Of a stretch of 64,000 nt of DNA, positions 11,031 through 56,118 are shown in pieces. The number at the start of each line of letters is the position of its first letter. The first letter of the stretch is position 1. Below the pieces are notes generated by a model. That model ran no database searches. It was given only the letters and a program-made list of their open reading frames with translations, and had not been told where the DNA came from. Position numbers and translations under genes: made by a program. This DNA is from Anaerolineae bacterium (GTDB taxonomy: Bacteria; Chloroflexota; Anaerolineae; Aggregatilineales; UBA2796), in NCBI GenBank assembly GCA_019637555.1, contig JAHBVK010000033.1, positions 1 through 64,000 on the forward strand, in the 5' to 3' direction.

Positions 11031-11189
11031 GCATCCTATCCTTCATTGATCGATGCCGTCGATTGCTCGCCAACTATTCGCTAACGTCCCGTCCATTCTT
11101 AACCGCCGCTTCTCTTTTTGGCACGATCTCCAGTAGACAACTCCCGCGACTTATTAAACAAACGGGCACAAAAGCGATCACTTTTACAC

Positions 11190-11808: not shown

Positions 11809-11934
11809 GCGAATCGCGCCATCTGACCCATTTGCAGAGGGACGCCTACAGCAGGTGGAATTTCCATCATGTGCTATCTCTCAACTAGAATGTGAGTTTG
11901 TGGTTAGTGTAGCATACTATGATTGGATAGTTAC

Positions 11935-13113: not shown

Positions 13114-13328
13114 TATGCCCCCTTATTAGATAGCTTCGCCATCACTCAATCCAACTATATACACTATTTGGCATATTGCGGTCTAACCTACCCCAACCAC
13201 CCTCCAATAAATCACCTACCCAAATCCTGATCAGCCCCCTGTTATTCCTGCGAATATCAGCCGCGAAATCACCTCCTCTGCAACCAATCGCCACCCTTCT
13301 ACGCTACAATAAGGAGTAGGAGGACGCT

Positions 13329-15173
13329 TTGACCGTAACCCCAACCACCGATTCCAATGATCTCGCCATCGCTAAGCCGAGCCTGCTGACCAAGTACGAG
13401 ACGCTGCGCCGCAAGGAGTCCGAACGGCTCAACGCGCTGATCGACACCTTCAGCCGCGTCGATGGCTTGCCTACCGAGCAGATGGAGCAAGCGCGCGATG
13501 CCCTTTTCCACGCCGATCACCCTTATCTGATCGTGCTGGTGGGTGCGTTCAATACTGGCAAATCCAGCATCATCAACGCGCTGATCGGTGAGCCAGTCTT
13601 GGAGATCGGTGCGACGCCCACCACCAGCAAGATCGCCATCGTGCGGCACGGTCCCTCCTTGCAGCGATCACAAGCAGGGCAGACGGAGACGGTATTCTTC
13701 CCGCATCCGCTGCTGGAAAAGGTCAGCTTGGTCGATACGCCCGGACTCGATTCGGTGTTCAAGGGTCACGACGAAACCACCCGCAAATTCCTGCACCGCG
13801 CCGATATGGTGCTGATGGTTATGCTGGCGACTCAGGCGATGTCAGCGAAAAGCATGGAATCCCTCGCCGCGCTGCGTGCCTACGGTAAGCGCGTGATCAT
13901 CGCCATCAACCAGATCGATCTGGTCGAGCCGGAAGAACGCGAGACACTGCGCCAGTTCGTCGCTGATCAAAGCAAACAGCAGCTCGGTTTCGTGCCTGAA
14001 GTTTGGCTGATTTCCTCGCGGTTGGCGGCAGAATCGCAGCGCGAATCTCCCCGCAATGAGCAGTTGTGGCGCGATAGCGGTTTCAGCGAGTTCGATAAGT
14101 TCGTCAACCGTGCTCTCAGTGACGCCGAGCGCGTGCGTCAGAAGCTAGATACCCCGCTGCAAATCGTCCGCAATGTGATGGCGCAGGCGACGGCAACGGT
14201 ACGCGAACAGCAAGACGCGCTGGCGGAACATCGCCGTTCGGCGCAGAACGTCAACACGCAGATCGAAGCCGGATTGCGCGATCAAGCCGCCACGCTCTAC
14301 GAGACGGAGGAGGAGATCAACAAGAGCTTTGCCGAGTCGATCCGGCGCGGGCGCGAAGCGATCCACGACACCTTCCAGTGGTCACGCGGCGTCAGGTTGG
14401 CGTTCGGCGGTCTTAGCGAGATCGTCGGCATCGGGCGCTTCTTCCGCCGCTTCGGGGCGCAGACTCCCGCCAAACTCGCCTTCGAAAGCCACAAGGTCGA
14501 AGAACCACTCGCCCAAGCGCCGATCATCGCGGATCGATTGGGTCCTCGCCTCGAAGGTCGGGACGTGAAAGACGTGGACGATCTGATCGGCTACACGCGC
14601 AAGGAGATCGAGGAACTGCCTGCCTCGCTGCAAGATAACCTGATCGGCACGCTGCAAGCGCCCAGCAGCTATGATCGCAGCATCTTGCGCGGCATCCGCG
14701 ACGAGCTGATGAAGCTGGTCGATCAAGCCCGCACGGTGGAGTTCCAGCGCATTGATGACAGCGTGCGCGGTTCAATTGCGATACTGGCGATCTACGAACT
14801 GCTGGTTATCTTCGTGGGTATTCTCGGCACAGTCATCGCGGCGAGTCAGAACAACGGCAATTGGGTATTCTTCTTCTTCGGCATGATCATCCTGATGATC
14901 GCGGGCGTGCTGGTCATGCCCTTGCGCGGGATGCTGCTGGAACGCCGTTACGCGGATCGGCTGCGCGGCATCAAAGAGGAATTCACCCGCACGCTGGACA
15001 AAGCCGCCAAGGATCAGATCGCTTACGGCAAGCAGATGCGTCAGGATGCGGTTGCGCCGTTCATGCGCCTCGTCGATACGCAGCTCTCGCAGATCGACAA
15101 GCTGAAGGTAGAGCTGGAAGAACATCAGCAAGCAATCACTGCGCTGGAGAAGGAACTGAGTGGACTGCGCTAA
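13329..15173 (+). CDS. Bacterial dynamin-like GTPase (DynA/YdjA family) with a C-terminal membrane segment.
   Basis: G1 GAFNTGKSS, G3 DTPG, G4 NQID. C-terminal hydrophobic pair (AILAIYELLVIFVGILGTVIA / VFFFFGMIILMIAGVLV) and coiled-coil tail. TTG start preceded by GGAGTAGGAGG. Confidence 0.8.
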   Translation: MTVTPTTDSNDLAIAKPSLLTKYETLRRKESERLNALIDTFSRVDGLPTEQMEQARDALFHADHPYLIVLVGAFNTGKSSIINALIGEPVLEIGATPTTSKIAIVRHGPSLQRSQAGQTETVFFPHPLLEKVSLVDTPGLDSVFKGHDETTRKFLHRADMVLMVMLATQAMSAKSMESLAALRAYGKRVIIAINQIDLVEPEERETLRQFVADQSKQQLGFVPEVWLISSRLAAESQRESPRNEQLWRDSGFSEFDKFVNRALSDAERVRQKLDTPLQIVRNVMAQATATVREQQDALAEHRRSAQNVNTQIEAGLRDQAATLYETEEEINKSFAESIRRGREAIHDTFQWSRGVRLAFGGLSEIVGIGRFFRRFGAQTPAKLAFESHKVEEPLAQAPIIADRLGPRLEGRDVKDVDDLIGYTRKEIEELPASLQDNLIGTLQAPSSYDRSILRGIRDELMKLVDQARTVEFQRIDDSVRGSIAILAIYELLVIFVGILGTVIAASQNNGNWVFFFFGMIILMIAGVLVMPLRGMLLERRYADRLRGIKEEFTRTLDKAAKDQIAYGKQMRQDAVAPFMRLVDTQLSQIDKLKVELEEHQQAITALEKELSGLR

Positions 15174-18161: not shown

Positions 18162-20084
18162 ATGAGCCATATATTTCTCAGTTATTCGCGAGATGATGCT
18201 GATTGGATGAGCATGATCCGCACCTATTTAGAAAAATTAGGTCTCAATACTTGGGTTGATGAAAGACGATTGAATACAGGGGATGAATGGTGGCAGGTAA
18301 TCAAGAACTCAATTGAACAAGCCTGCTGCGTCATTGTCCTGCTTTCTCCAACTGCAAATACCTCGGAGTGGGTACAGAAGGAAATAGATCACGCGCTCAC
18401 TTGTGGGCGTCAGGTTTACCCTCTACTGATACGTGGTAATGCGCAAGCTGAGAGTACGATCCCGCCTGCGTTAGCAAATCTCCAGTGGACAGACATCAGA
18501 GCAGAATTTACTAGGATGGACGCTGTTGTACGAACGATTCGAGAGCGTCATGGTACAGCCTGCGGGGAGGTCAAACTTTCGACTCCTCCTGTCCTTAACG
18601 AGATTAAGGCGACAGTAGTTGCTGTCATGGGCGTTAGGGGTGGTGTCGGCAAAGGAACATTCGTTGCCTGTGCAGCCCAATTGTTAGCTGAAAAAGGGGA
18701 TGAGGTCGTCATTGTAGATTTTGATCTGGAGTCTTCGGGTGCAACCAACAAAGCAATGACCCGTCCCGGAACAGTACGTCCACCTGTCAAAACTATTTAC
18801 GATCATTTTGCCCCTTATGCTCTTAGATTTGAGAACCATCGCGGACCTGAATCTGAGCAACTATGGAACATCACGCCAACTTATTTGCAGGAACGCGGAC
18901 TTGGAAATATCTGGCTCGTCCCGGCAGCCGACACTGCGCGCGTGCGAGCAAGTTTTGAAGTAATCGCCAATATCCCAGTCCCGCGCGAGAAAACCGTGTT
19001 GAATGTCACCTATGAAGTGCTAAATCGCATTCAACGGGTAAGACCACAGGCAAAATGGATCCTTATGGATTGCGGCGCTGGTACCAATCCAATATATTCG
19101 GCAGCGTTTGTCGCAGCCCGCTATCGTTATATGGTCATATTGCCAGATAGCAGTTTTTTCAATCAGATCGCCACCATCAAAGCAGAACACGTTACCCGCT
19201 ATCCCGAAGAATCGGGCGTTGCTCAGGTAAACATTGTTGTCAATCGTATTTCTTCGGACGAACACAAGTATCAAACAGCAGTACTCAAGCCAATAGGGTT
19301 CATTCCTGAAGACCCGACGTTGCAAGCCGACGATTTTCAGCAACCAATTGATTTTGATTTAGGGTACAGCGCCGTTCTAGAAGCTATTCATAGAGCGCTG
19401 AATGCTAGTTTCGATATGGAAGATCGAAAGCGATTGCCTAAAGAAGAAAATGTTCGTTTATTGCCGTGGCTTAATCCAGTCCTGCGCAATCGCTTGGCTT
19501 CACGACTACTGAATGACAAGTTGTTCAAGAGAACTACGCTGCTGCTCTACGGCGTAACCATCGGATCTGCAGTGGTTACGGTGCTGGTAGTCGCAGCAGC
19601 ATTGATCCTCAAATTGCTGCAAAGCCTACAGCCGCTAGCTACATCCGAAATATCGGCTGTTTCCACACCAGTACAAACAGCGCCTCAAATCGATCTAGTG
19701 CTGGTACTTACCGGAATCGCCGCGACATTGGCTGGTGCGTATTTTTTGCGCGAACAACTGCGCAAGCGAGCATTATTGCGCCGCGTTGTAGTTATGGAGA
19801 ATACCGAATCCGAAATTGAGCAATATGCACTTTTGCGCAAGCTCATTCATGGTGAAATGGATATGAGTCGGGGAACGCTGCACTGGTTCAACCAGCAGGT
19901 GCAAAAGGCACAGCAAGCGGACAAAAGCGCGCGTAGTCACCAAGTAGCGAAATACGAAGCAAAGCTAACCTTCCAAGACCAGAATTCAGATATTCCCTCC
20001 GCTATTCAACTGTCGAGTGAATCATGGCGTTCACTTGATCATTTTTCTACTCAGGGGAGTATTGACGATGACGACGAGACCTGA
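18162..20084 (+). CDS. Membrane-anchored TIR domain / ParA-MinD-type P-loop ATPase fusion protein.
   Basis: N-terminal TIR (IFLSYSRDD...VIVLLSPTANTSEWVQKEIDHAL, with the conserved Glu in the SxWxxxE motif). Deviant Walker A in VMGVRGGVGKGT, followed by VVIVDFD and ILMDCGAG, as in MinD/ParA. Two predicted TM helices near residues 455-530. AT-rich codon usage. Confidence 0.8.
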   Translation: MSHIFLSYSRDDADWMSMIRTYLEKLGLNTWVDERRLNTGDEWWQVIKNSIEQACCVIVLLSPTANTSEWVQKEIDHALTCGRQVYPLLIRGNAQAESTIPPALANLQWTDIRAEFTRMDAVVRTIRERHGTACGEVKLSTPPVLNEIKATVVAVMGVRGGVGKGTFVACAAQLLAEKGDEVVIVDFDLESSGATNKAMTRPGTVRPPVKTIYDHFAPYALRFENHRGPESEQLWNITPTYLQERGLGNIWLVPAADTARVRASFEVIANIPVPREKTVLNVTYEVLNRIQRVRPQAKWILMDCGAGTNPIYSAAFVAARYRYMVILPDSSFFNQIATIKAEHVTRYPEESGVAQVNIVVNRISSDEHKYQTAVLKPIGFIPEDPTLQADDFQQPIDFDLGYSAVLEAIHRALNASFDMEDRKRLPKEENVRLLPWLNPVLRNRLASRLLNDKLFKRTTLLLYGVTIGSAVVTVLVVAAALILKLLQSLQPLATSEISAVSTPVQTAPQIDLVLVLTGIAATLAGAYFLREQLRKRALLRRVVVMENTESEIEQYALLRKLIHGEMDMSRGTLHWFNQQVQKAQQADKSARSHQVAKYEAKLTFQDQNSDIPSAIQLSSESWRSLDHFSTQGSIDDDDET

Positions 20085-21567
20085 ACCGGGACGTTTCGGC
20101 TATGCTGTTTTAATGTCTTATACTTACTTTTTGTCGATTGGTGTTTTTGGGATTATACAGTGGTTTACTGACCTCGATCTTAAGCAAGCATCCTCTAGCT
20201 ATCTGCGCACTGCCTTCAGTATCGACCAGAATTCGACAGTTTCCGTAATCATGTTCTTTGGTTGTTACATCCTCTCGGTGTTGCCTATCGGCTCGGCTGT
20301 ACAGCTGTACTATAAATACACTGGGCGTACCTATACGGGGGATCGGATTGGTTTTGCCAAGTCTGGCGGACATGACATCGCCACTTGGGCAGGATTGCTT
20401 TCTTTTGTCCTAGTCGTCTATGTTTTTGCTCGTTTCATTCCCGCTGGAATACTAGGAGTGGGACGTGTCGTTGTCATTTTCGTCGCTAGTTTTTTTCTAA
20501 GTGGTTGGCTGACGCGCACCTTGACTGGATTGCTCTACGAGGCAATGTATCGCCCACGACTTACCACCACCTTTGGTCTCTCAAGCCTACTACGTTGCCA
20601 GATACTCTATCCGACGAATTATGCACGCTGCCCAAATCCGACTTACCGTATTTTACCGATCTGTCGCTGGCATCGCATCATGGCTGAGTTCCGCAGAGAC
20701 TATCAAATAGCTCCATGGGCTGCTCATGTAATGATGTATCTAGCTGGAAGCAGCTTCTTTGCCGTCATATTCTGTTCATACCAATTTTCCGTTACGGTAG
20801 ATGGGCGCTGGTTACTACCGATAGTGGCTTCAACGGGCATGACATTTGCTACTTTTGCTGACTCGGTGATGGCGCGGAATTATCCACTATCGCAATACGC
20901 GCTGTGGGCAAAAATGCTGTCGACAGGAATACTACTGGTGGCGATTGGGGCAGCTATCCTTGCATTCTATGCAGTTTTAGCGCCAGATGCGACACGCGCT
21001 TTTGTCCAGCAACTCACGACGGATGAACGCTTGATCGATTGGTCACCTGCTCTCATAGGCATTATTGGTGGCTTCGGCTTTGGAATTTACGGGCGCATGT
21101 TCTTACGGCGTGTCCTATTCATCCGTAATCGCTTTGCCAATTGGGGAGTGTATGGAGTTCAATTGGGTCTAATTGGCGCGGCACTACAACCGCTGTTCAT
21201 GAACCTTTCCCCTATCAGTCCGCAGAATTCGCCAGACTTCTGGACGCCAATATTGGGCGACTCAAACCTCTTACCCATTGGTATCGTCTGGTTTATTGCC
21301 TTCAACATTTGCGAAATCATCAACGTGCGGGCGCGACGTGCCGAACTTACTGACGCGGAATTTAAACGTACGTTTGAAATATCTTATGGAGCGTGTATTC
21401 TGCCTGCCGTATTAGGTTTGTTCGCTGCCCGTTATCTTATGATTTGGCTGACCCTCAGTGGCGTTGTCATACTAGGGGCGATTTCGATTGCAATTGCTAT
21501 ACCGCTGTGCATGGCAACGACTCGTTGGGTAATCAACTGGGGACGAACCCCGCCCTTAGCCCGTTAA
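20066..21567 (+). CDS. Polytopic integral membrane protein of unknown function (about 10-12 TM), translationally coupled to the TIR-ATPase gene.
   Basis: ATG (MTTRPEP) overlaps the upstream stop by 19 nt. Multiple hydrophobic helices. No recognisable family. Same low-GC composition. Confidence 0.65.
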
Positions 21568-26090: not shown

Positions 26091-27623
26091 TCACGGTTTC
26101 GGCTGACACTGCGGCAAGTTTGGTTTCGTATCGCAAATGGGTGGCAGCGGATTATCCGGATCTCTGGTAGGTCGGGGCGTGCGAGTTGGCGTCTTGGTTG
26201 GCGCTGGTGGTTGCACTTGCAGCGTGACGCTCAACCGATTGTTGGCAGTGTTGGTTTCCCTCGTCTTGCGATCTTGATTCACGCTGGCAGTGGTTTGCAT
26301 CGCGCCGCTATCGGTGTAAGTGAAGCTAAACGTGATCACTTTACTTTGTCCGGCTTCCAGATTGGTGATAACTTGCGTTAGCGGCTGCACATCCAGACTC
26401 GCTTTGGGCTGCCATGCGACCTCAAACTCCGGGGCGACGCCTTGCCCTTGATTCTGCACCGTAACACTGATGGTGACGCGCTGCCCTGTGCGCGGCGATG
26501 TCGGTGAGAAGGTGATCGCACTCACAGTCAGATCGGCGCGTGGCGCGGTAAATTCGACGGATGTGCCCATTTCGTCAGCCATCGTGTCAAACTTCACCGT
26601 CACGGAGGCGATACCGACAGTGGTGAAAACTGTCGCGGGTACATCAACCACGATCTCCCGATCATTACGGGTGGCGATATTGACCACAGTACCACCAATT
26701 TTTACCACAGGCGGATTCCCCTGCGTTGGCAGCTTGCCGCCAAGAATACGCATTTGCGCATCGGTGCTGGCAACTAGTTTCTTGGGGAACACGAAGGAAA
26801 TGTAGGGCTGCGTCAAGGCGACCAGCTTCTTATCGGCGGCTTGTGCAGCCGTTCGACTCAGAATGAAGGTGCGAAGGGAAGGAACGGTGACGCCCGAAAC
26901 TCCTATCAGGAACACGACGCCTAGCAAGACTAAGCCGATGATCTGGAATTTGCCTAGCGTAGCCGCACTCCGCATGGAGAAAAAGCCGATCCCCACCACG
27001 ATCAGCGCGACCAGTCCGACGATCCCGAAGATGAGCTGCCACAAGCGATCCGCGCTGCGATCAATGAGTGCCGCGCCCGACTCGGTAGCGACGATGATCA
27101 CTTCTTTGAGCTTGTCGGCAGCGTGATCGATAGTAGTGTTGATCTCTTTGCTCGCCTGATCGATGATGTTCAGCGCGGTGTCGGAGATAACGGCAATGTC
27201 ATCCAATATCTGATCGTTGATCTGCTGCACGAGGTTGAACAGCCGCGAGAGCTGCCCATCGACGAAGGCATCTGCTTTGTCGAGTGCGATGTCGAGGTTA
27301 TCCTGAAACTTTTCTTCGATGAAGCGGATGAGTTCTTGGATTTCTCGTTGTGCATTTTCCAAGATTTCCTTCGACGCACCAACAGCAGCATCTTTGGCGT
27401 GGTCGATAGCATCATTTACTAGTTTGCCAACGCCCAACAACGCGCCGACGGTGAGTACAGCGCCGAGGAATGGCTTGGGTTTTGCCAGTACCACCGTAGT
27501 TGGTCGCGCTAATCCTAGTCCCAGTCCTAGCGATCCCAATACGAGCGCAAAAATGACGGCTGTTGACAAGCCTGCACGCAGGGATTGTCCATAGCGTAGA
27601 GTCTGCGACATACGCACCTCCAC
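26091..27623 (-). CDS. Membrane protein with a C-terminal CARDB-like domain and a Pro/Thr-rich tail.
   Basis: ADLTVSAITFSPTSPRTGQRVTISVTVQNQG matches the CARDB pattern. N-terminal hydrophobic segments. Tail PPAPTKTPTRTPRPT. Confidence 0.55.
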   Translation of the reverse strand: MEVRMSQTLRYGQSLRAGLSTAVIFALVLGSLGLGLGLARPTTVVLAKPKPFLGAVLTVGALLGVGKLVNDAIDHAKDAAVGASKEILENAQREIQELIRFIEEKFQDNLDIALDKADAFVDGQLSRLFNLVQQINDQILDDIAVISDTALNIIDQASKEINTTIDHAADKLKEVIIVATESGAALIDRSADRLWQLIFGIVGLVALIVVGIGFFSMRSAATLGKFQIIGLVLLGVVFLIGVSGVTVPSLRTFILSRTAAQAADKKLVALTQPYISFVFPKKLVASTDAQMRILGGKLPTQGNPPVVKIGGTVVNIATRNDREIVVDVPATVFTTVGIASVTVKFDTMADEMGTSVEFTAPRADLTVSAITFSPTSPRTGQRVTISVTVQNQGQGVAPEFEVAWQPKASLDVQPLTQVITNLEAGQSKVITFSFTYTDSGAMQTTASVNQDRKTRETNTANNRLSVTLQVQPPAPTKTPTRTPRPTRDPDNPLPPICDTKPNLPQCQPKP

Positions 27624-27739: not shown

Positions 27740-28864
27740 TCACCGATCAGAAGGCAATGCAGCCGACGTGACAAAAGCCTCCGTCATGCCCTCATCTTCA
27801 ATAGGCTTGAGCGCACGTCGGCGTATCGCCAACCGGATTGCCCAATCTAAGGCGAGCCGAATCATAAGGATGTATAAAGCAAATCCCGCGCCTATCATCA
27901 CCAGTCGTTGCAATTGATGGTTAGCGTCAACGGTCAGGCGCGTAAAGTCAGTGATCAGCAACATACCGCCATCTGCCAAGCTAGATACTGTGACTTGAAG
28001 TGAATCTACAATGCCGGAAATGTCTTTCGGACACATTCCACCGTAAGGACCATAGATACAAGGACCCATGTTGCTTGCCAATGGAGATATGGCATATGAG
28101 ATCGCCTGAGATGGGCGCAATGAGTTAGCAATTGGGATAATGGCGAACCAAGACCACAATACCGCCGTAATCAACACAAAACGCATCGTGATCGCTAATA
28201 GGTAACCTGCCAAGCGATTAAGCTGCGCTTGTAACATCGCCGCTATGGAGATAACCACAATAAGAATTGATTCCATAAGGGCAAAAATCAACAAGAAGCC
28301 GATAGCGGTAGTCATCAACTTAACACGGACTATATCCATCATGGCGCTTGGGTAATTGTTCCAATAACACAATCCGCCAAAGTAGCTATAGCAGTTAGGT
28401 ATTGCTGTGGTGAACAAATATTGCGACAACCCAACAGCGATGCCCATTCTCGGCAGCGCGGCAAGGATCGTGTCTATAGCGACAAGGCGCATGACCACCC
28501 ATACTTTGGAGACAATAATCTGAGGCGCATCTAGTGTCGTTAACACGAGTGCGTCCCAATGATCGCTATCCAAATGGCGGGCAATTACAGAAGTCGCTAG
28601 TATGACGGTTCGCACGATAAGCAGCGTCGTTAAGCCGTAAATAATGAACGCCATCAATGGCAACAAAATATAAGTATGTGTAGCGTCAATCATTGGTATC
28701 CATAAAGGAAGGACACCAGCGCAATAGGCAGCGACAAAGACTATGCCGTACAGCCACTTACTCGCGCTGGACTGCTCTCTTAACTGTCGTCGCAAGTAGC
28801 GCAAATCCGCATCCACCAGCGCCGGATGAAGCCAATTTCGCGCTGCTTGTCGCCACATCTGCAT
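27740..28864 (-). CDS. Hypothetical polytopic membrane protein.
   Basis: Six or more hydrophobic helices. Co-directional and adjacent to the CARDB protein gene (probable operon). Confidence 0.5.
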   Translation of the reverse strand: MQMWRQAARNWLHPALVDADLRYLRRQLREQSSASKWLYGIVFVAAYCAGVLPLWIPMIDATHTYILLPLMAFIIYGLTTLLIVRTVILATSVIARHLDSDHWDALVLTTLDAPQIIVSKVWVVMRLVAIDTILAALPRMGIAVGLSQYLFTTAIPNCYSYFGGLCYWNNYPSAMMDIVRVKLMTTAIGFLLIFALMESILIVVISIAAMLQAQLNRLAGYLLAITMRFVLITAVLWSWFAIIPIANSLRPSQAISYAISPLASNMGPCIYGPYGGMCPKDISGIVDSLQVTVSSLADGGMLLITDFTRLTVDANHQLQRLVMIGAGFALYILMIRLALDWAIRLAIRRRALKPIEDEGMTEAFVTSAALPSDR

Positions 28865-33690: not shown

Positions 33691-36600
33691 TCAGCCTACC
33701 GAGACGACCACATCATCGACCTGCCAGCCATCGGCAACCGTGCTGTTGACCGTCGAGTCAAGCTGCCATTTGAGCATCACCTCGATCTGCGCCCCCGATC
33801 CATTGGGGATGGTGTAGCTGGTTGCTACCCAATCTTGCAGCGCGAGTCCGGTGGTCAGATCAGGGCTGTTGGCATTGTGTTCGGTAGCCGCGACCTTATT
33901 CCACGTCGCGCCGCGATCCGTTGAGTACCATGCCGCCGCATGATCCGTATCGGCAATCGACCAGCGTTCACGGTAAGACACGAACGCCGTCTTGCCCGCC
34001 GGAATCTTGATCGTACCGTTGAGGATCAAGCTGCTGCGCGTCAAGTGTGTGTAACGGGTTTCCCACGCGCTAGTGCGTGCTACGTTCTCCGGCTGCGCGA
34101 TGCGGAAGTCAATGTACGGCTCACCCGTCAACGCCACCGTAGAGTGCAGGAAGCGCACTTCAACATCCACCGTACCGCTGATCGGCACACTGTAGTAGAA
34201 GATACGTCGTGCGGTAGTAGCAGTTTCCGGCGTGGTGCTGGTCGAGATGTAAGGTCTCGGCAGCACTGCGCTGGGCGTGATCACACTGCCACCAACGAGC
34301 ACCTGTGCGCCGCCTGTTGCTTCTAAGCGGAACAGATAGGTCTGGGCGGTGGTGGCGGTCAGACGGCGACGCCAGCGGATCGCGTACCACTCATCGTTGT
34401 TCAAGCCGCCTACTGTCCACGATGGGTTGCCCGGTGGGATAGGCAGATTGACATGATCAGCACCGTAGTCGAAGCTGATGTTACCGCCTTCGATCCTGCC
34501 CGGCAGGTTAGCAGTTGTCGCCAACAAGGCTGCCCAGTTGACGCTCGTACCGCCGCTCCAGTTGGCATTAGTGTGATAGAAATCGCCCACCCAACCGGAA
34601 GAAGTGACGCCTGCGCCCGGATAGCCATTGCCCGTCCATGTCGTGCTTACTGGCGACAGGGTAGTGGGATTGTACTCGGCGTAGCCCCACAGGATATTGG
34701 CTGGCGTGCCAGTCGCGGGTACTTTCCAGTCACCTTCGAGTATCCAGCGGCTCGGACCACTCATGGTATCGAAGCCGGGCGGCAGGGCATCGAAGGATTC
34801 CCACACTGGCGCAACGCGGTCAACAATATGGAAACTATCCAGATTGACGCCGTCAGCGGCAGTGGCGGTATCCATCGCCTCCAAACGGATACGTACTTTG
34901 AATGGCTGCTGTGCAGCCGTCAGATTGACGGGCACGATCACCCGCGTCCATGCCAGATTGGTGCTCAGCGAGATGGCTGCGTCAGTGGTTGCCCATTGCT
35001 GCGTCCACGTACCGCCATTTGGTTTGAAGTCTACTGCCAGCGCGTGCGTCGTCGATCCGAAGTTGTACTTCGTCCAGAAGACAATCGCCGGGTAAGAGGC
35101 GGCAGTCGTATTGATGGGTTGGATGAACTCCATTACGCTGCGTTCTGGCTTGTCATAAGGAACACCAGTACCGGGGCTATCGACCCAGCCACCCGTCGTC
35201 GTACCGCTGCTGTTGGTCTTACCGACGTTGTTCGCCCATGCCCAAGTACCACCGACATACCAGTTGTTGGCGGAGGTAGCGGCATCCATGTCTTCGATGT
35301 ACTCGGTACCTGCCGTCAAAGTGACAGGGGTTTGCACCAAGTCTTCGATGCGGAAGTCGTCAATGTAGACACCGTCGCCGGGTACGCCTGTTCCCGTCGC
35401 TTTGATGTTGAAGCGGAACTTCAGACGCGGTGCGCTGGCGATAGTTTGCGGTGGTGTTTGTGCCGCAAGTACCGATACCAGATCGATCTCAAAGCGATAC
35501 CACGCTTTATTCTCTGATCCTTCAGTAGCCTTGTTGAGCTGCCACGCTTGATTCCACGAGATACCGTCGTCGGATGAGAAGTCTAGACGAACGTTGGCAT
35601 TAGGAACTTGCCAGCGCAGCCAGAAACTGATCGTCGGCTTGGTCGAACCAGTGATGCGGATCGCAGGTATCAGTTCGGTGGTCTTGTCCACATCAACCTG
35701 ATACAAGGCACCGTTCGGGCTGTCAGTCAAGGCTGTCGGCAAGCCATGTACAGGGTCGCTACCAGCGGTCAATGCCCAGCCGTTTAGTTCCCAGTCGGTG
35801 GTACTGGTAAACGGTTCAATGAAGGGCAGCGAGCGTTCGCTCACCACATTCAGACGTACTTTAAGGTTATCGATGAACCAACCACTGGCAACGGAAGCGT
35901 CCGTATCCGCCAGCAGTCGGAAGCGAATCATGATCTGCTTACCACGCAGCACCGTACCAGCGTAGTCGGAGTCGAGACGTACTTTGACCGTCTCCCATGT
36001 GATGTTGTTGGTGCCCTGATACAAGTATGGCGTTGTACCACCCAACCGTTGCAGTGGCAGCCACGGTCCTTCAGCGATAGTGGTATCTGGCGCAGTGCCG
36101 GATTTGGTCACTTCGCTGTACTCCACCAGCACCTGATCGGTAGCTGCGGCTAGGCGCACTTGGCTATCAAATTCCAACAGCGGCAGATCACTGCCCGTTG
36201 GGATGTTGAATATTCTATCGATAGTCAGCGGGCAATCTGAACCGCCCGTGTAGCTGCTGAAGTTGACAGGTCCGTTGAGACCACCGTAGGAACCGCTCCA
36301 CCAGACACTGCGGGAACCCGTAGCGCCTTCGTTGACCACGCGCCACGTGCATTCGTTGACGTAGTTGATCTGACTTCCGGTGTTGATAACGTCAGTGAAC
36401 GGCGTAGTCGTGGTGATCGTCACTTCTTGCGGACCGTACTCGAACACACCGATGTCATCAAGATACCAGCCATCTTCTGTGTCATTGGCAGTATCGCTGA
36501 GGACACGGAAGGCGATCTCGACTTTGCCGGACGTACCTGCTCCGGTGAAGTCTTTGGTCACCGTTTCCGATCCGATTTGACCCTGCGCACCGCCTGTCGT

Positions 36601-37938
36601 CGGCTCAACGTAAGCACCCGTAATGTTTTCCAGATCGAGAACGATACGGTTCCAATTGAAGTTCGTGCCGATAGTAGTATGGACGCGCTTCCACAGCCAT
36701 GGATCGGTGCTGCCATAATCGCGGACACCGACGATCAGGCTGTCGCCAGTGTTCAGTTTCCAGCGATTCCAGAAGATCAGGCGGGGGTTATCCATCGTCG
36801 AAATGTCGTACCAGCCGCGCTGCCGCAGCGTGCACGAAGAATTAACGGAATAGTTGATACGGGAGATGCCATCCTGACTATCTGCCCACGCATTGTTGGG
36901 ACTGCGGTTGTAACCTGCTGGCGAGACGATGCTGGCGTTCGTCCACTTGCAGTCGCCGTAATCGCTGACGCGGTTGATGGTTACTTCAATGGAAGCGTTG
37001 CCACTAATATCGCTGAACAGAGCGACAACCTGATGTATGCCTGTTGTAGAGGCGGTGTAGTAGCCTAGTTTGGTGACGACACCATCTGCACTTGGTGCGG
37101 TGATGTCAGTGACGACCGGTGAGCCATCCACTTCAACGCGGAAGAACTCATTACCCGTCACGCGGATTTCCCAAACCTCACCAACGGTAAAAGGTACACC
37201 GGGGTTCAGGGGATCAGGCGGGGTGGCGGGGTCGGTCTGCGCGAGTGCGGTATAGCGGGCGCTAAAGCCATCGGAAGCAACACCCGCATAAGGTGAACCA
37301 CCGCCCCAATCGAACTTCAGATGATCCTGCAAAATCTCAGTGGCAAAAGGTGCACCTGAGAATGTCATCGGAGAATTGAAGTACTCGACATTCCACGCAA
37401 AGCGGGCGCGGCTTGGCGCAGTCACATTATCGTAGTGCCACTGCGTTTCCGTTCCCGGTTGATAGTATGTATTGATGTTGAACTGCTGATCGACGGGCGT
37501 CTGCGAAGGCACAATGTAGGTGCTCGTCGCTGTTGGCGTGTACGTCTTGGTGAACGTAGCCGTAGGCGAGCTGTAGGGAGTCCCCATCGGTGTATCGCTG
37601 GGAGCCAAGGTCGGCAGGATGACGATCTGGTTGGGTGTACGCGGAGGCGGGGTATACGATGCCACCGCCGCGATGTAAGTCCCAAGCTGCTCGACGCTCA
37701 GTGTTGGATACGGTGTCCACGTCTGCTGAAGTAGATTAATCACCGCGTTGCTGAAGATATTGCCGACAGCCGGACCAGTCAAGGCGATGATGCCGATGAT
37801 CGCCATCACCACGAATACGGCGATCAACACATACTCGACCAGCGCCTGACCGGGTTTTCGGAGCAGACCACTGATCTTGATCGCACGATTGCCGCGCTGC
37901 CTTGATGTAGCCATCTTACCTTGATTGGGACGTACCAT
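33691..37938 (-). CDS. Very large (1415 aa) extracellular protein with an Flp/TadE-type prepilin-like N-terminus.
   Basis: N-terminus RKPGQALVEYVLIAVFVVMAIIGIIAL matches the G-x-x-x-x-E-Y class-III signal of Flp/TadE pilins. The rest is Thr/Ser/Trp/Asn-rich beta-rich sequence with no obvious repeats. Confidence 0.7.
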   Translation of the reverse strand: MVRPNQGKMATSRQRGNRAIKISGLLRKPGQALVEYVLIAVFVVMAIIGIIALTGPAVGNIFSNAVINLLQQTWTPYPTLSVEQLGTYIAAVASYTPPPRTPNQIVILPTLAPSDTPMGTPYSSPTATFTKTYTPTATSTYIVPSQTPVDQQFNINTYYQPGTETQWHYDNVTAPSRARFAWNVEYFNSPMTFSGAPFATEILQDHLKFDWGGGSPYAGVASDGFSARYTALAQTDPATPPDPLNPGVPFTVGEVWEIRVTGNEFFRVEVDGSPVVTDITAPSADGVVTKLGYYTASTTGIHQVVALFSDISGNASIEVTINRVSDYGDCKWTNASIVSPAGYNRSPNNAWADSQDGISRINYSVNSSCTLRQRGWYDISTMDNPRLIFWNRWKLNTGDSLIVGVRDYGSTDPWLWKRVHTTIGTNFNWNRIVLDLENITGAYVEPTTGGAQGQIGSETVTKDFTGAGTSGKVEIAFRVLSDTANDTEDGWYLDDIGVFEYGPQEVTITTTTPFTDVINTGSQINYVNECTWRVVNEGATGSRSVWWSGSYGGLNGPVNFSSYTGGSDCPLTIDRIFNIPTGSDLPLLEFDSQVRLAAATDQVLVEYSEVTKSGTAPDTTIAEGPWLPLQRLGGTTPYLYQGTNNITWETVKVRLDSDYAGTVLRGKQIMIRFRLLADTDASVASGWFIDNLKVRLNVVSERSLPFIEPFTSTTDWELNGWALTAGSDPVHGLPTALTDSPNGALYQVDVDKTTELIPAIRITGSTKPTISFWLRWQVPNANVRLDFSSDDGISWNQAWQLNKATEGSENKAWYRFEIDLVSVLAAQTPPQTIASAPRLKFRFNIKATGTGVPGDGVYIDDFRIEDLVQTPVTLTAGTEYIEDMDAATSANNWYVGGTWAWANNVGKTNSSGTTTGGWVDSPGTGVPYDKPERSVMEFIQPINTTAASYPAIVFWTKYNFGSTTHALAVDFKPNGGTWTQQWATTDAAISLSTNLAWTRVIVPVNLTAAQQPFKVRIRLEAMDTATAADGVNLDSFHIVDRVAPVWESFDALPPGFDTMSGPSRWILEGDWKVPATGTPANILWGYAEYNPTTLSPVSTTWTGNGYPGAGVTSSGWVGDFYHTNANWSGGTSVNWAALLATTANLPGRIEGGNISFDYGADHVNLPIPPGNPSWTVGGLNNDEWYAIRWRRRLTATTAQTYLFRLEATGGAQVLVGGSVITPSAVLPRPYISTSTTPETATTARRIFYYSVPISGTVDVEVRFLHSTVALTGEPYIDFRIAQPENVARTSAWETRYTHLTRSSLILNGTIKIPAGKTAFVSYRERWSIADTDHAAAWYSTDRGATWNKVAATEHNANSPDLTTGLALQDWVATSYTIPNGSGAQIEVMLKWQLDSTVNSTVADGWQVDDVVVSVG

Positions 37939-38268
37939 AGCCTCACATCCCCCCGTACACTCTAAATAGTACTGTGAACGAAACGATACTCAGCAGCCGC
38001 AACTTCAATGTTAGCTGTGAACCTGCGACTGTACCTAACCTGACATAATTCGGGTTTGTAGCCCAAAAAGCGATCTCGGAATCAGAGTCCCGACTAGCCC
38101 GATTACTATAGTACATGAGAGTGCGTATTTCGCGGATATTAGTTTGTGTACATTTTGTGTGAAACCATTGACAAAAGAATCGCGGCTGCAAACCTAAATT
38201 TGTAAAAATGGGATCGTGCAAAATCAGAAGAAAACTCGCTATAATGTGGGATAAGTGGCGCGGGGCAT

Positions 38269-39180
38269 TTGGATATTGAGGGATTTGGTGACGACTTGTT
38301 GACGTTAAACCGCCAACGGTTCGTATGGCTATGGTGCTGGCTGGGAGTGCTGGTCGTCGGCTGTAGTGGTAGTGCCAGCACAACTGCCCTCAATTCCACT
38401 CCCACCTCGGCGACACCACTGGCAACCTTTGTGCTGCTCGGCTGGACGCTGACGCCGCCAACTCCGCTGCCTACATCTACGCCGATCCCTCGTCTACTAC
38501 GGACGCCAACGCTGCCGATGTTATCCACTGTCACACTGATGCCGACCTCGTCTGCTGCGCTCTCCGCCGCCGAAACCGAACAATTGTTACTGGCGCAGCC
38601 CACTTGTTATGAAACTGCTACGGGCAGCCTCTACTGTCTCGGTGTGGTCGAGAATACGCTGCTGCTGGCAGTGGAGCACATCATGATCCGCGTCTATCTG
38701 GTGGATGTGCAAGGATCGGCGCTGGCGCAGGGCGAAAGTGGGTTAGCGCAAATGCTGCTGCTCCCCGGAGAACGTGCCCCCTACGGCGTACTCTTTGACT
38801 CCGCACCTGCGGGGGTGATCGGAGGAGTCGCCATGCTGATCAACGCGCAGGAAGCGCAGCCACAAGATGCAGCAGAAAGTGCGATTTTCCATTTGCTAAT
38901 TCAGGATGTAACATGGAATGATTGGCAAGTGAGCGGGCTGGTCGTCAATAAATCGGGGCAGAAGCTGGAACAAGTTTGCGTGATTGTGACCTTGTACGAT
39001 AAGGCAGGAGCGGTGACCGGATTTCGCATCTGGCGCTCAGCCGATCAACAGGTTCTGGTTACAGGTGCGACGCTGCCCTTTGAGATCACCGCTATTCCGC
39101 AAGGTAATCCTGTGGCACAGTGGGAAGTGAGTGCAGAGGGATATACCGTCCGGCAGAACGCAGGTAGTGCTACACCTTAA
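38269..39180 (+). CDS. Hypothetical secreted or lipo-protein.
   Basis: N-terminal hydrophobic segment with LVVGCSG lipobox-like motif, a Thr/Pro-rich linker, then a globular domain. Confidence 0.5.
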   Translation: MDIEGFGDDLLTLNRQRFVWLWCWLGVLVVGCSGSASTTALNSTPTSATPLATFVLLGWTLTPPTPLPTSTPIPRLLRTPTLPMLSTVTLMPTSSAALSAAETEQLLLAQPTCYETATGSLYCLGVVENTLLLAVEHIMIRVYLVDVQGSALAQGESGLAQMLLLPGERAPYGVLFDSAPAGVIGGVAMLINAQEAQPQDAAESAIFHLLIQDVTWNDWQVSGLVVNKSGQKLEQVCVIVTLYDKAGAVTGFRIWRSADQQVLVTGATLPFEITAIPQGNPVAQWEVSAEGYTVRQNAGSATP

Positions 39181-54230: not shown

Positions 54231-56118
54231 ATGCCACGCTCGATACATGATGCTGAAGTGGTCAAGCTGATCAACGAAGCTCGCCTTGACCGCAATCGTT
54301 TTCATCCCTCTCCTATTGATTGGCGCGACCAGTGGATCTACTTCATTTTGATAGATCGCTTCAGCAACTCGCAGCAGGAGCCGAATCACTCTCCGTGGGA
54401 TCAGCCCTACGATAAATTTCAGGGCGGCACTTTCAACGGCATCCGCGATCATCTGGATTACCTGAAAGAAATGGGCGTTGGCGCGATCTGGCTCTCTCCG
54501 GTACTCAAGAATGCGCAATATAAAGAGGCGTCCTATCATGGCTACGGCATACAGGACTTCCTAGCAATTGAACCGCGCTTCTCCTCCGATCCCGAACGCG
54601 CCCGCCAAGACCCGACTTTTCCAGAAAATGAACTGCGCCAGCTTGTTGATGCCATACATCAGCACGGCATGTATATCATTTTCGACATCATCTTGAATCA
54701 CGTTGGCAGTGTCTTTAGTTATCGCACAGACGCAGGTAACGCAGAGGATGTCCCTTGGCGTGAGGAAGGTAAATACGACATCCTCTGGCATGATGAAAAG
54801 GGGCGCGTTGAACAAGAATGGAGTGAACCGCCAACACAGGGTGGAAAAAACGAGGAGTTGACCAGCAAGATTTCACAGGATGCGCTGATCTGGCCCCAAG
54901 AATTGCAGCGCAATGATTACTTTCGGCGGCAAGGTAATGCCTTCACCCGCGCTCAGGAGGATGGAGAACGGGCAGGTGATTTCAACAGTCTAAAGGAGTT
55001 GGTAACCGATTATGTTGAATTACGACCCATTTTACGGACGTTACTATCCCGTCCGGCAGGCATTGATCGTCGCCCATCAGTATCTTTTGCTAAATACGAT
55101 ATTGACGGCTTCTCGCATGGACACGTTGAAATACTTGGAACCGGATTTCGTCCGTTCATTCGGGACTGCCATCTCGGAATTCGCAACCGTCATCGGTAAG
55201 AAGAACTTTTTTACCTTTGGCGAGGTATTCGATGACGATGAGAAAATCTCCCATTTCGTCGGGCGTGATGTGCATAACCACGGCGACTTGCTTGGTGTCG
55301 ATGCCGCATTGGACTTCCCGTTGTTCTTTGTGCTGCCCGGTGTCATTAAAGGGCAAAAAGCCCCGAGCGATCTGGTTGCAATGTATGAGAATCGTCAACA
55401 CACACTGGCGCCGATCATCAGCGCTCAGGGAGAAATCGGTAGTTTTTTCGTCAATTTTCTGGATAACCACGATGTCAACTCGCGCTTCTACAGCGCCGAG
55501 TCTGACGATCCTCGAAAATACGATGCCCACATGTCGCTGGCGTTAACTTGCTTGCTAACACTGCAAGGGATTCCCTCACTTTATTACGGCACGGAGCAAG
55601 GGTTGCAAGGAAGCGGTGAAAGTTCCGAAGCCACGCGAGAGGCTTTATGGGGCAAACCGAATGCCTTTGACTTGCACCATCCCTTTTACCGCACCATTGA
55701 ACTCCTCTCGCGCTTGCGTGCCCGGCAGCCTGCAATCCGTTATGGTCGTCAGTATTTCAGGCAGACATCCGAAGATGGAGTCAATTTCAGTTACGCTACA
55801 CGTCCGGGTGGTGTGCTCGCGTATTCGCGCTTACTGGATAGTCAGGAAGTAGTTGTTATCGCCAATACGAGCTTGGATCAGGGCTGGCAAGGTGAAACGC
55901 TGATTGATTATGCCATTGAGGCAAACAACCATGCTTATACGCTGCAATACAGCAATCAGCGCGTGGTTCAGAACAGCTACCCGATTTCCATGATCGGCAA
56001 AAATGAAGGCACTATCCAGATCACTAATCTGGATGGCACGAATAGCAAAGGTGCCACACGAGCGATCAGGGTGGAATTACTGCCCGCTGAAGTTCAAGTG
56101 TGGAGTAAAGGTAGATAA
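54231..56118 (+). pseudogene. GH13 alpha-amylase-family gene split by a frameshift near 55010-55040.
   Basis: ORF 54231-55199 carries GH13 region I (DIILNHVG). ORF 55012-56118, in a different frame, carries region II (ASRMDTLKYLEPDF), FLDNHD and the C-terminal domain. Confidence 0.55.

Follow-up and report, generated by a model that had tools for sequence, protein, structure and literature searches.

The window analyzed here, a 64-kb stretch of DNA from an Anaerolineae bacterium, poses the question of why a protein of 1415 residues, most of them in a β-rich ectodomain, should begin in the manner of a Flp pilin, given that mature Flp pilins have 40–60 residues and "entirely lack a C-terminal domain" (PMC10710030). 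The first-pass annotation had placed the open reading frame at 33691–37938 and quoted its N-terminal sequence. Translation agrees with both and identifies the minus strand as the coding one (the plus-strand frame is riddled with stop codons), the product of 1415 aa beginning with MVRPNQGKMATSRQRGNRAIKISGLLRKPG|QALVEYVLIAVFVVMAIIGIIALTGPAVGN... (Table 1).

Table 1 Features of the giant Flp-fusion gene and its surroundings, with positions in the 64-kb window
Feature	Residues	Position	Strand	Basis
Whole gene, giant Flp-fusion protein	1–1415	33691..37938	minus	ORF list and translation
Stop codon		33691–33693	minus	
Class-III-type leader peptide, ending at invariant Gly30	1–30	37849..37938	minus	Charge, conservation
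Flp-type pilin core (QALVEY...TGPAVGNIFSNAVINLL)	31–75	37714..37848	minus	Motif, model, profile match to Flp
Conserved extension of pilin module (TP..T....Y.AAVASYTPP)	76–100	37639..37713	minus	Homolog conservation
Pro/Thr-rich flexible linker	101–176	37411..37638	minus	Composition, low pLDDT
PA14-like β-sandwich domain 1	177–325	36964..37410	minus	AF2 and Foldseek
Four tandem MAM/reelin-subrepeat-type jelly rolls	326–505, 506–697, 698–866, 867–1040	34819..36963	minus	Pfam, AF2, Foldseek
Putative PA14-like domain 2, with long insertions	1041–1290	34069..34818	minus	All-β model 2 and homolog alignment
C-terminal InhA-like MAM jelly-roll domain	1291–1415	33694..34068	minus	Pfam and model 2
Intergenic region (~330 bp) shared with divergent gene		37939..38268	.	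Sequence read directly
Divergent 303-aa lipoprotein-like gene (LVVGC lipobox-like motif)		38269..39180	plus	Synteny

Pilin-like module at the N-terminus

A short charged leader followed by a pilin-like segment had been described for this protein and is indeed present: a basic stretch of 29 residues (8 K/R, no D/E in the leader) precedes Gly30, QALVEY and a single hydrophobic helix, with the Kyte–Doolittle value exceeding 1.6 only within residues 29–63 and reaching 1.2 at the next best peak. Translation may start at M1 or M9, of which M1 (MVRP) is favoured because the closest homologs begin with or contain MVR(L/P); with either start, a class-III-type leader precedes Gly30, after which cleavage by a prepilin peptidase is predicted. 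The AF2 model shows a disordered leader and a helix over residues 31–69. A regular-expression search for G....E[YFW] plus a hydrophobic run found only the Gly30 site in all six frames of the window (~128,000 codons), where ~0.4 chance matches are expected by a rough estimate, so that this single match is not improbable by itself. The motif is considered to exceed chance because it lies N-terminally, right after a basic leader, is conserved in all 33 relatives, and belongs to a segment whose profile matches Flp pilins.

The conservation is selective. G|Q[A/S][L/M]xEY is kept in 33/33 relatives, including those with only 22–25% overall identity, at a variable distance from the start; the leader varies in length (14–34 aa) and sequence, with the Gly invariant. 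In an alignment of 24 modules, G, Q, E and Y are all invariant, E35 and Y36 corresponding to positions +5 and +6 of the predicted mature protein. The N-terminal module is the best conserved part of the family proteins (53–62% identity versus 15–35% across the rest) and is therefore unlike a generic TM anchor in its behaviour. A conventional TM anchor with no conserved Gly or Glu-Tyr in homologs, the outcome that the first-pass annotation had held against its own proposal, is thus not what is found.

The proposed Flp-type class-III signal is borne out also by homology to short Flp pilins. Genes for 48–50-aa Flp proteins identical to the window module at 24 of 39 positions occur in Anaerolineae, as exemplified by the mature 48-aa Flp of locus L079. 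A profile of the module (A1) gave 7160 matches at E ≤ 1e-3 among 1.84e9 proteins and reached a canonical tandem Flp (P0165; E = 1e-15), which itself scores 68.5 bits against PF04964, and most of the short relatives tested have Flp_Fap as their top Pfam family. In the PDB, the best matches are 8u1k and 8u2b, both Caulobacter Tad pilins, in register (Gly at −1) with weak E values (0.12 and 1.8). The window N-terminus as such reached no Pfam or NCBIfam cutoff, with no Flp_Fap match and TadE at 13 bits (E = 0.099). On these comparisons, residues 31–75 correspond to a mature Flp pilin in full. The adjoining extension, with a short second helix (82–93) in the AF2 model, is common to the giant homologs and to short paralogs of 122–138 aa (P0029–P0032).

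A widespread family

Full-length homologs (n = 28) range from 1074 to 1881 aa, and one protein (P0001), encoded in an NCBI Anaerolineae MAG, is nearly identical. The family comprises 108 clusters at 50% identity, and of the 80 best genome loci, labeled nearly all as Anaerolineae/Chloroflexota, 77 contain its gene. This giant Flp-fusion family is widespread yet undescribed, and the architecture, initially judged unusual, deserves that word relative to the literature but not within Anaerolineae, where it is common.

Linker and ectodomain

The linker (17 T, 11 P and 6 S per 76 residues) is poorly conserved and has pLDDT below 55 without secondary structure in the AF2 model. It leads into an ectodomain of ~1240 residues with two PA14-like domains and five MAM/reelin-type jelly rolls, which is rich in Thr, Trp and Asn as first noticed (11.5%, 4.1% and 5.7%, respectively) and predicted by AF2 to be all-β. 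PA14-like domain 1 is modeled with pLDDT above 90 over residues 181–323, and Foldseek retrieved for it the PA14 domains of the MpIBP RTX adhesin, RsgI sensors and Epa/Flo adhesins (E ~3e-6). The Pfam search gave no PA14 match in the 1415-aa protein, for domain 1 and domain 2 alike; PF07691 matches are on record for homologs, and it is with such homolog segments that the domain 2 region aligns. The assignment of domain 2 is weaker than that of domain 1.

The rest of the ectodomain was covered by a second AF2 model (model 2; pLDDT 81.9, pTM 0.68). Each of the four tandem jelly rolls closes with a ...DGW(Y/F)(I/L)DD... strand, and the Cys pairs 330/369 and 530/569 are conserved, C330 being invariant. 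Residues 778–821 match Reelin_subrepeat-B (PF21471; 37.9 bits, cutoff 27), and Foldseek returned for the four-jelly-roll region reelin repeats (E = 1e-19), followed by the MAM domains of neuropilin, meprin, enteropeptidase and RPTPmu. The C-terminal domain, composed of strands with pLDDT ~90 in model 2, matches InhA-like_MAM (PF20773; 33.8 bits, cutoff 26.9) over residues 1306–1414. Beyond PA14, the likeness is to reelin, MAM and CBM-type domains. The structural check for lectin, hydrolase or Ig-like folds recommended earlier yielded lectin/adhesin-type β-sandwiches, and Pfam, AF2 and Foldseek found no enzyme or catalytic fold in the ectodomain. Of the two functions originally offered, adhesin or enzyme, the former fits and the latter is disfavoured because the β-sandwich array contains no enzyme fold.

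Tad genes and genomic context

No tad machinery or prepilin peptidase genes were found in the 64-kb window, nor at distances of up to 10 kb from P0007, P0002 and P0024, all members of the family, and a motif screen of 80 genome loci gave no match for CpaF-like ATPases or A24-like peptidases; at the loci examined, the family gene always stands apart from the tad machinery. In the main clade its neighbourhood is conserved and of housekeeping type, with folD in 52/77 loci; in most species the synteny takes in folD, a guanylate-kinase-like gene and a gene for an amidohydrolase. Short Flp genes lie 2–3 kb from the giant family member in two loci (L079 and L072). In another (L129), a short flp related to the module heads a tad locus, flp-tadE-tadE-tadG-...-rcpC-tadZ-cpaF-tadB, whose TadE, TadE, TadG, RcpC/CpaB, TadZ, CpaF and TadB all exceed Pfam cutoffs and whose CpaF has close homologs named by NCBI as Chloroflexota or Anaerolineae proteins. 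The short paralog P0029 (122 aa) is encoded by the last gene of a tadE-tadG(vWA)-tadE cluster. Anaerolineales are known to possess and transcribe flp-cpaB-cpaE-cpaF-tadB-tadC clusters (PMC4877987).

Predicted mode of display

With a complete Tad/Flp-type pilin at its N-terminus, the protein is probably an adhesive cargo of giant size that the tight-adherence pilus system carries or anchors. On balance, the evidence leans toward a modular pilin of the Flp class (type IVc, Tad) that a TadV-type peptidase would cleave and that would be displayed as an adhesin on, or through, the Tad pilus. The fusion would consist of a complete Flp prepilin, a 25-residue extension, a Pro/Thr linker of ~75 residues and a β-sandwich array of ~1240 residues. 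In the predicted pathway, the protein would be inserted by SRP/Sec with N-in/C-out topology, its ectodomain being translocated and folding outside the membrane, as judged by the presence of only one TM segment, by the conserved Cys pairs and by domain types that are extracellular. A prepilin peptidase of TadV/CpaA type, encoded elsewhere, would then cut after Gly30, leaving Gln31 with Glu and Tyr at +5 and +6; we infer this step because the motif is invariant. The Tad assembly platform may subsequently take up the mature Flp helix alongside ordinary 40-residue Flp pilins, with the giant subunit at the tip or sparsely interspersed. Since Chloroflexota are considered to have no true outer membrane, the 150-kDa cargo need not pass a secretin. 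Finally, the PA14/jelly-roll array would, by analogy of fold, bind polysaccharide or protein ligands and help to make these bacteria, which are filamentous and floc-forming, adhesive. Tad pilins expose their C-terminal end at the filament surface (PMC10710030), so that a C-terminal fusion on a long linker could project outward; grafted adhesive modules are presented by modular pilins (PMC8179133), and minor-pilin tips functionalise Tad pili (PMC12075869). Against this modular-pilin assignment, the conserved housekeeping neighbourhood looks more like that of a core envelope component than of an accessory pilus adhesin. The lack of tad and prepilin peptidase genes in the window and near the family members examined, and the sub-threshold Pfam scores of the N-terminus, also speak against it, and to our knowledge no subunit of 150 kDa is known from a Tad filament.

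Comparison with known systems

The role proposed here is worth comparing with those of the modular type IV pilins PilB (vWA) and PilC (lectin) of Streptococcus sanguinis (Raynaud et al. 2021, PMC8179133; PMC9934059), which likewise belong to an envelope without an outer membrane. The modular pilins of that survey, the largest being 860 aa (PMC8179133), are of T4a type, defined by the IPR012902 N-methylation motif; their pilin part has a globular head and their linker is short (PMC8179133; PMC9934059), whereas the giant protein would use a Flp (T4c) carrier without a globular head, has a linker of ~75 residues and a cargo of ~1240, and is unlinked to pilus genes. The Flp/Fap major pilins (A. 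actinomycetemcomitans Flp1; Caulobacter PilA, PDB 8u1k; PF04964) share with it the basic leader, Gly −1, Glu5-Tyr6, the continuous hydrophobic helix and the G..(V/I)..(I/V)F.. tail; it differs in its ~1340 further residues, its location outside a tad locus and its score below the Pfam cutoff. The TadE/TadF/TadG pseudopilins and the Myxococcus Kil "Tip" minor pilins KilL/M/N, with Flp adapters KilK/KilO (Herrou et al. 2025, PMC12075869), are prepilin-peptidase-dependent Tad subunits of the families TadE (PF07811) and Tad (PF13400), encoded within minor-pilin clusters; the domains that they expose at the end of the pilus vary, are sometimes large and give it specificity. The tadE-tadG-tadE operon containing the short paralog P0029 is reminiscent of these, although the giant protein has a Flp-type EY motif, reaches only 13 bits with TadE, is several-fold larger and is encoded by a stand-alone gene. 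Its ectodomain shares folds, and an array projecting away from the cell, with PA14-bearing giant adhesins (Marinomonas MpIBP RTX adhesin, yeast Flo/Epa) and MAM/reelin-type arrays, with sequence identity of only 8–19%; those PA14 adhesins are anchored by T1SS retention modules or by GPI/cell wall, without a pilin.

Alternative explanations

An unlikely alternative, still deserving serious weight, is that the Flp-like N-terminus, cleaved by the prepilin peptidase or intact, only keeps the lectin-like giant in the cytoplasmic membrane, or in a raft close to it, outside any filament; so anchored, the protein would be a core envelope or cell–cell cohesion component of the filamentous cells. An archaeal precedent is the Sulfolobus bindosome (PMC3047682), in which sugar-binding proteins with large non-pilin ectodomains carry class III signal peptides and are processed by a prepilin peptidase for surface display rather than classical pilus formation, although its cargo consists of ABC-transporter substrate-binding proteins and is assembled by its own Bas system. 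Consistent with such anchoring, the family gene is nowhere linked with tad genes at the loci examined, its conserved synteny in most species suggests a vertically inherited core gene, and the long linker would let the ectodomain span a thick multilayered envelope. However, a plain anchor needs neither 53–62% identity over the Flp-equivalent region, including TGPAVGNVFSN beyond the membrane, nor close similarity to co-resident short Flp pilins, and short paralogs with the same module are located in a minor-pilin operon.

It is improbable that the protein is a secretion substrate of the Tad system, its helix being extracted after cleavage in a type-II-secretion-like or pseudopilus manner and the protein freed into the medium or matrix. 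This option, raised in the first-pass annotation, shares the N-terminal evidence of the modular pilin, and in its favour machines of the type 4 filament class do function in secretion (PMC10191384). Nothing, however, points specifically to release; in solution, a hydrophobic helix of 23 residues would be unfavourable, and the T2SS substrates known to us are not pilins.

Very improbable is a thick filament or sheath of which the protein is the major subunit, with a polymer core of Flp helices decorated by outer domains of 1300 residues. The single ancient conserved lineage, usually at one conserved locus, and the pTM of model 2, suggesting a fairly defined multi-domain body, would suit it; the Tad helical rise of ~5 Å per subunit (PMC10710030), however, is too small for each subunit to carry a 150-kDa domain, the 75-residue linker notwithstanding, and short Flp genes are present in the same genomes. 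Finally, the reading of the N-terminus as a plain Sec signal peptide or signal anchor, its G....EY likeness being coincidental, is strongly disfavoured: the sub-threshold window N-terminus and the chance-level motif count would allow it, but it is contradicted by a motif kept in every relative despite variable leaders, by the profile link to canonical Flp, by the match, weak but in register, to Tad pilins of solved structure, and by the region past the hydrophobic stretch, where TGPAVGNVFSN is pilin-like and no A-x-A-type cleavage region is conserved.

Upstream region and divergent gene

Purine-rich G runs and GAGG immediately precede the ATG of the giant gene. Open reading frames inside the intergenic region look non-coding, and a promoter search there gave a single promoter-like match, not above shuffle expectation. 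The divergent 303-aa lipoprotein-like protein has only a weak DUF3426 match; its gene is not conserved next to the more distant family members. It is 42% identical (E = 6e-63) to the product of a gene in the same divergent position beside P0002 (locus L007), and this conserved neighbour in the closest relative is a possible partner of the giant protein.

Flp-type pilin module of the giant protein

The open reading frame at 33691–37938 was recovered in the ORF list and by translation, and the first-pass annotation was right as to both of its ends, but the 1415-aa product is encoded on the minus strand; a plus-strand reading was discarded, that frame being riddled with stops. The protein begins with MVRPNQGKMATSRQRGNRAIKISGLLRKPG|QALVEYVLIAVFVVMAIIGIIALTGPAVGNIFSN..., in which the bar follows Gly30. 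The leader of 29 residues before Gly30 contains eight Lys/Arg and no acidic residue, and the sole hydrophobic segment of the protein falls within residues 29–63, in the arrangement of a class III signal (basic leader, Gly at –1, and then a hydrophobic stretch). The motif at this site, G|QALVEY, is of the Flp type, with Glu and Tyr at +5 and +6 of the mature protein, whose predicted length is 1385 aa. A regular-expression search of the six-frame translation (G....E[YFW] with a hydrophobic run) found this site alone in the window, a lone match that is not statistically remarkable by itself, and the case rests on other evidence. A near-identical homologue from an NCBI MAG (P0001) differs at about five residues (e.g., F198V, G219T, and I1038V) and is truncated C-terminally by the end of its contig; the window accordingly derives from another, closely related assembly or strain.

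A database search gave 28 homologues of 1074–1881 aa with an overall identity of 22–48%, whose named sources are all Anaerolineae/Chloroflexota-type MAGs. Lack of a conserved Gly and Glu-Tyr in homologues had been set beforehand as the observation that would speak against a prepilin signal; G|Q[A/S][L/M]xEY is kept in all 33 sequences compared, including the 28 homologues and four short relatives (122–138 aa), following a leader variable in sequence and in length (14–34 residues). The invariant residues of the 24-module alignment (A1) comprise G, Q, E, Y, I, and one F; a downstream TGPA.N..N is nearly invariant. Residues 26–75 are 53–62% identical to those of 27 homologues, as against 15–35% over the rest of the protein; for a generic signal anchor, the reverse pattern would be expected.

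The N-terminus has no match to Flp_Fap (PF04964) at E ≤ 10 and reaches no Pfam cutoff. The sub-threshold scoring is attributable to the model under-reaching this clade, since genuine Chloroflexota Flp pilins of 48–50 aa also fail, with just 24–30 bits at a gathering threshold of 32.2 bits. Among ten short relatives scanned, Flp_Fap matches span 13.7–26 bits and two proteins have none, only P0165, a canonical tandem Flp pilin, passing the threshold; Flp_Fap is the top Pfam family, below threshold, for most short relatives tested. With the A1 module profile, 7160 matches at E ≤ 1e-3 were obtained among 1.84 billion representative proteins, running continuously into canonical Flp pilins; P0165, itself scoring 68.5 bits on PF04964, was matched at E = 1e-15. 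The two best pilin matches in the PDB are the solved Caulobacter PilA Tad pilins 8u1k and 8u2b, with weak E-values (0.12 and 1.8); the register is kept in these matches, position +4 after the Gly being paired with mature residue 4 of PilA. By these three lines (profile, P0165, and the weak PDB matches) the module is homologous to accepted Flp/Fap members. Furthermore, 24 of the first 39 mature residues are identical to those of the mature 48-aa Flp encoded at L079, a locus of a relative, and the N-terminal ~45 mature residues therefore correspond to a whole Flp pilin.

The protein falls outside TadE/TadF/TadG, giving 13.2 bits (E = 0.099) with TadE (PF07811, cutoff 22.9 bits) and no match with Tad (PF13400, cutoff 22.3 bits), when genuine TadE proteins at the loci L001 and L129 score 38–63 bits. 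On reading the sequence, the methylation motif of the IPR012902 type (G|[FM]TLxE) is absent, the Flp-type G|QALVEY standing in its place. The closest NCBIfam prepilin model gave 13.6 bits (E = 0.054; cutoff 138), and NCBIfam is uninformative for Flp membership, as canonical P0165 itself matches none of its pilin models.

Structure of the ectodomain

AlphaFold2 prediction for residues 1–340 with 30 sequences gave a disordered leader, a helix at 31–69 beginning exactly at residue 31, a second short helix at 82–93, a disordered Pro/Thr linker at 101–176, and a confident β-sandwich at 181–323 (pLDDT >90). In Foldseek searches the β-sandwich matched PA14 domains of the Marinomonas RTX adhesin MpIBP, clostridial RsgI, and yeast Epa/Flo (E = 3e-6 to 1e-3), so that the PA14 fold is recognized through the predicted structure; the sequence model PF07691 has no match in the giant protein, while matches are on record for homologues. 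Residues 336–1415 were predicted as an all-β array (mean pLDDT 81.9, pTM 0.68), the best structural matches of which are reelin repeat fragments (E = 1e-19), followed by neuropilin, the MAM-containing enteropeptidase, meprin, and RPTPmu, and CBM-like toxin domains. Two Pfam models score above cutoff, namely PF21471 (Reelin_subrepeat-B, 37.9 bits; cutoff 27) and PF20773 (InhA-like MAM, 33.8 bits; cutoff 26.9). The domain order, as read from the predicted model together with the ...DGW(Y/F)(I/L)DD... strands that recur at domain ends, is one PA14-like domain, then four jelly rolls, another PA14-like region, and one last jelly roll. The description of the ectodomain as β-rich and rich in Thr, Trp, and Asn agrees with these predictions and with the composition (T 11.5%, W 4.1%, and N 5.7%).

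No second transmembrane segment, cell-wall sorting signal, or catalytic domain was found in the protein, and the conserved Cys pairs (330/369 and 530/569) are consistent with a position outside the cytoplasm. Of the two kinds of cargo proposed initially, adhesin or enzyme, the former fits the adhesin-type folds (PA14 and MAM/reelin), whereas the latter was rejected, there being no catalytic Pfam or NCBIfam family and no enzyme core in the fold search; the sole NCBIfam match of the ectodomain is an M36 peptidase model over a 35-residue jelly-roll strand, scoring 27 bits where the cutoff is 1700.

Distribution and genomic setting

A scan of one genome per species yielded 190 confirmed matches. 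Nearly all of the best 80 of these 190 loci are labelled Anaerolineae, Aggregatilineales, Thermoflexus, Ardenticatenia, or other Chloroflexota, and 77 of the 80 contain a member of the giant family. One family member (L069) is encoded in the complete Aggregatilineales genome CP146238.1, and Aggregatilineales SYSU G02658 is a cultured carrier. All 108 module-bearing proteins of at least 800 aa that were gathered match the ectodomain profile at 236 bits or more, although the test is partly self-matching, 27 of the 108 being in the seed alignment. Promiscuous fusion of the Flp module to varied cargos is therefore rejected, and the proteins form a single, old family.

In the main clade (L010–L089), the giant gene is accompanied by folD in 52 of 77 loci, an amidohydrolase gene in 44, and a guanylate-kinase-like gene in 41, and this conserved housekeeping setting suggests a core gene that is inherited vertically. 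The window copy belongs to a smaller clade without the folD-type synteny, a difference suggesting two paralogous lineages. Here the conserved neighbour is a divergent gene for a 303-aa lipoprotein-like protein; its product is 42% identical to that of the gene in the same divergent position beside P0002, the closest giant homologue (locus L007), and may be a partner of the sub-clade to which the window copy belongs. Two ORFs of 146 and 154 aa immediately upstream were rejected as partners: they look non-coding, match no family, and overlap mutually as well as with the divergent gene. In promoter and terminator scans around the giant gene, counts did not exceed the shuffle expectation.

A Pfam scan of all 50 large ORFs in the 64-kb window found no tad or prepilin peptidase genes; the neighbours encode M16 peptidases, a LysM protein, a dehydrogenase, a pentapeptide protein, sugar ABC transporters, and similar products. 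There are likewise no tad genes near those for the homologues P0007, P0002, and P0024, each a stand-alone gene, and a motif screen across the 80 genome loci found no CpaF-like or A24-like proteins. For the 120 CpaF homologues listed, the lengths of the longest contigs coincide with none of those that bear a giant gene. In the window and the family loci examined, the giant gene is accordingly not encoded with a tad locus.

Other loci do connect the module with Tad biology. In L079 and L072 the giant gene has genuine short flp genes at a distance of 1.8–3.4 kb, and a 122-aa short paralogue (P0029) is encoded by the final gene of a tadE–tadG(vWA)–tadE operon. A metagenome scan with the short Flp type recovered a further locus (L129), which contains a tad locus headed by a 50-aa flp, its tad-family genes all scoring above Pfam cutoffs; no secretin was found in the part of it that was read, and NCBI names close homologues of its CpaF as Chloroflexota or Anaerolineae proteins. 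Conserved and transcribed flp-cpaB-cpaE-cpaF-tadB-tadC clusters have been described in Anaerolineales (PMC4877987), Tad pili have been reported in other Chloroflexota (PMC7332563; bioRxiv 10.1101/2025.08.19.671072), and this phylum is increasingly seen as having no true outer membrane (bioRxiv 10.1101/2025.08.19.671072).

Two further observations were made at these loci. In the otherwise canonical Chloroflexota-type tad locus of L129, the tadG-like gene and rcpC are separated by a gene for a Kelch-repeat β-propeller protein, a candidate tip or accessory component that is not itself a pilin; a 760-aa ORF occupies the equivalent position in L130. A TadE-family pseudopilin at L001 carries a Pro/Thr/Ser/Asn-rich tail of ~180 residues with TPxxT-type repeats; thus, long PT-rich extensions seem recurrent in Chloroflexota Tad subunits.

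Features of the window and of the loci of relatives
Feature	Source	Coordinates	Strand	Remarks
Lower-G+C stretch	window	10001–14000		~49% G+C
WD40/PD40 β-propeller protein	window	11935–13113	–	in the lower-G+C stretch
Dynamin-family GTPase	window	13329–15173	+	gene start within the lower-G+C stretch
TIR/ParA-like stretch	window	18162–21567	+	640-aa protein, then 516-aa ORF
CARDB/DUF11 surface-type protein	window	26091–27623	–	510 aa; few kb from the giant gene
ORF without family match	window	27740–28864	–	374 aa; adjoins the CARDB/DUF11 protein
Giant gene	window	33691–37938	–	1415 aa
Upstream ORFs	window	37943–38603		146 and 154 aa
Divergent lipoprotein-like gene	window	38269–39180	+	303 aa; N-terminus …LVVGCSGSAS; weak DUF3426 match
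α-Amylase-like ORF	window	54231–55199	+	profile 1–151
α-Amylase-like ORF	window	55012–56118	+	profile 219–367
TadE-family pseudopilin	L001	8474–9910	+	478 aa
Example main-clade neighbours	L012	8703–9590; 7222–8580; 14162–15205	–; –; +
Kelch-repeat protein	L129	8382–10571	+	729 aa
tad locus	L129			50-aa flp, TadE, TadE, TadG-like, Kelch, RcpC/CpaB, TadZ (receiver + ParA), CpaF, TadB

Proposed interpretation as a modular Flp-class pilin

The best-supported reading of the giant protein is that of a modular Flp-class pilin. It would be inserted by the Sec machinery with the N-terminus in and the C-terminus out, and a TadV-type peptidase would cut it behind Gly30; the Tad platform would then take up the mature helix together with ordinary Flp subunits, and the PA14/jelly-roll array would be presented on the long linker for adhesion. 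The motif and its conservation, the Flp homology, and the folds of the domains are observed, while position in the filament and ligand are, like cleavage and pilus incorporation, predicted parts of the model. Functional precedents are found in the modular T4a pilins (PMC8179133) and in the 'Tip' minor-pilin complexes of Tad pili (PMC12075869).

In the main rival, the Flp segment would be no more than the anchor of a core surface protein, as in the archaeal bindosome (PMC3047682). Both the housekeeping synteny of the giant gene and its separation from tad genes favour an anchor, but the entire pilin-equivalent region is strongly conserved, well past its membrane-spanning part, which disfavours it. 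A further reading, which we regard as rather unlikely, is that the giant proteins, folD-linked in most species, are not occasional tip adhesins but a conserved core surface structure of Anaerolineae, the Tad system, or its prepilin peptidase alone, being dedicated to assembling and displaying a protein of >150 kDa. Such a structure might take the form of a 'bottle-brush' Tad filament, with a Flp core bearing giant lectin arrays on long linkers, or of a pilin-anchored surface layer holding multicellular filaments and flocs together. If true, bacteria would have an equivalent of the archaeal bindosome, and no earlier Tad-type subunit would have had a genuine C-terminal domain.

Tad/Flp pilins are described as the one class of just 40–60 residues in mature form and with no C-terminal domain (PMC10710030), a size that the giant protein far exceeds. 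Modular type IV pilins (Raynaud et al. 2021) combine a pilin module with C-terminal non-pilus domains, as does the giant protein; however, they are defined by the T4a signature IPR012902, whereas the giant protein carries the Flp-type (T4c) motif. The published survey was confined to that signature and its largest case has 860 aa (PMC8179133), far below the present cargo. No Flp pilin with a large C-terminal domain was found in the literature searched on Flp/Tad with modular pilins or Chloroflexi, which yielded general reviews and the papers cited here. The family is already half-recognised, in that automated annotation names some members 'Flp pilin' (three of the 28 homologues, by the JGI pipeline), and we class its members as modular pilins in which the carrier is of the T4c/Flp type and the cargo is giant, common in one bacterial class.

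A Flp pilin with ~1340 extra residues, kept in at least 77 genome loci of which almost all bear Anaerolineae/Chloroflexota labels, would extend the principle of grafting a module onto a pilin to Tad pili and to a cargo much larger than any in that survey. In wastewater and anaerobic digesters, where Tad genes are highly transcribed (PMC4877987), Anaerolineae filaments give flocs and granules their structure, and the family is a concrete candidate for what makes these filaments adhesive. A mechanistic question is also posed, namely whether the Tad platform can cope with a 150-kDa subunit and where in the filament that subunit sits.

Other features of the window

The CARDB/DUF11 surface-type protein and the product of the adjoining ORF are candidate further envelope proteins near the giant gene. 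The stretch encoding a TIR + ParA/MinD-like P-loop protein and then an ORF without family match has a G+C content of 47–48%, as against 55–59% around it, and could be an acquired defence-type island; a second lower-G+C stretch contains the β-propeller gene and the start of the dynamin-family GTPase gene. Finally, two overlapping ORFs each match a different part of the α-amylase catalytic domain, which points to a glycoside hydrolase gene that has been split or frameshifted, or else to an error in the assembly.
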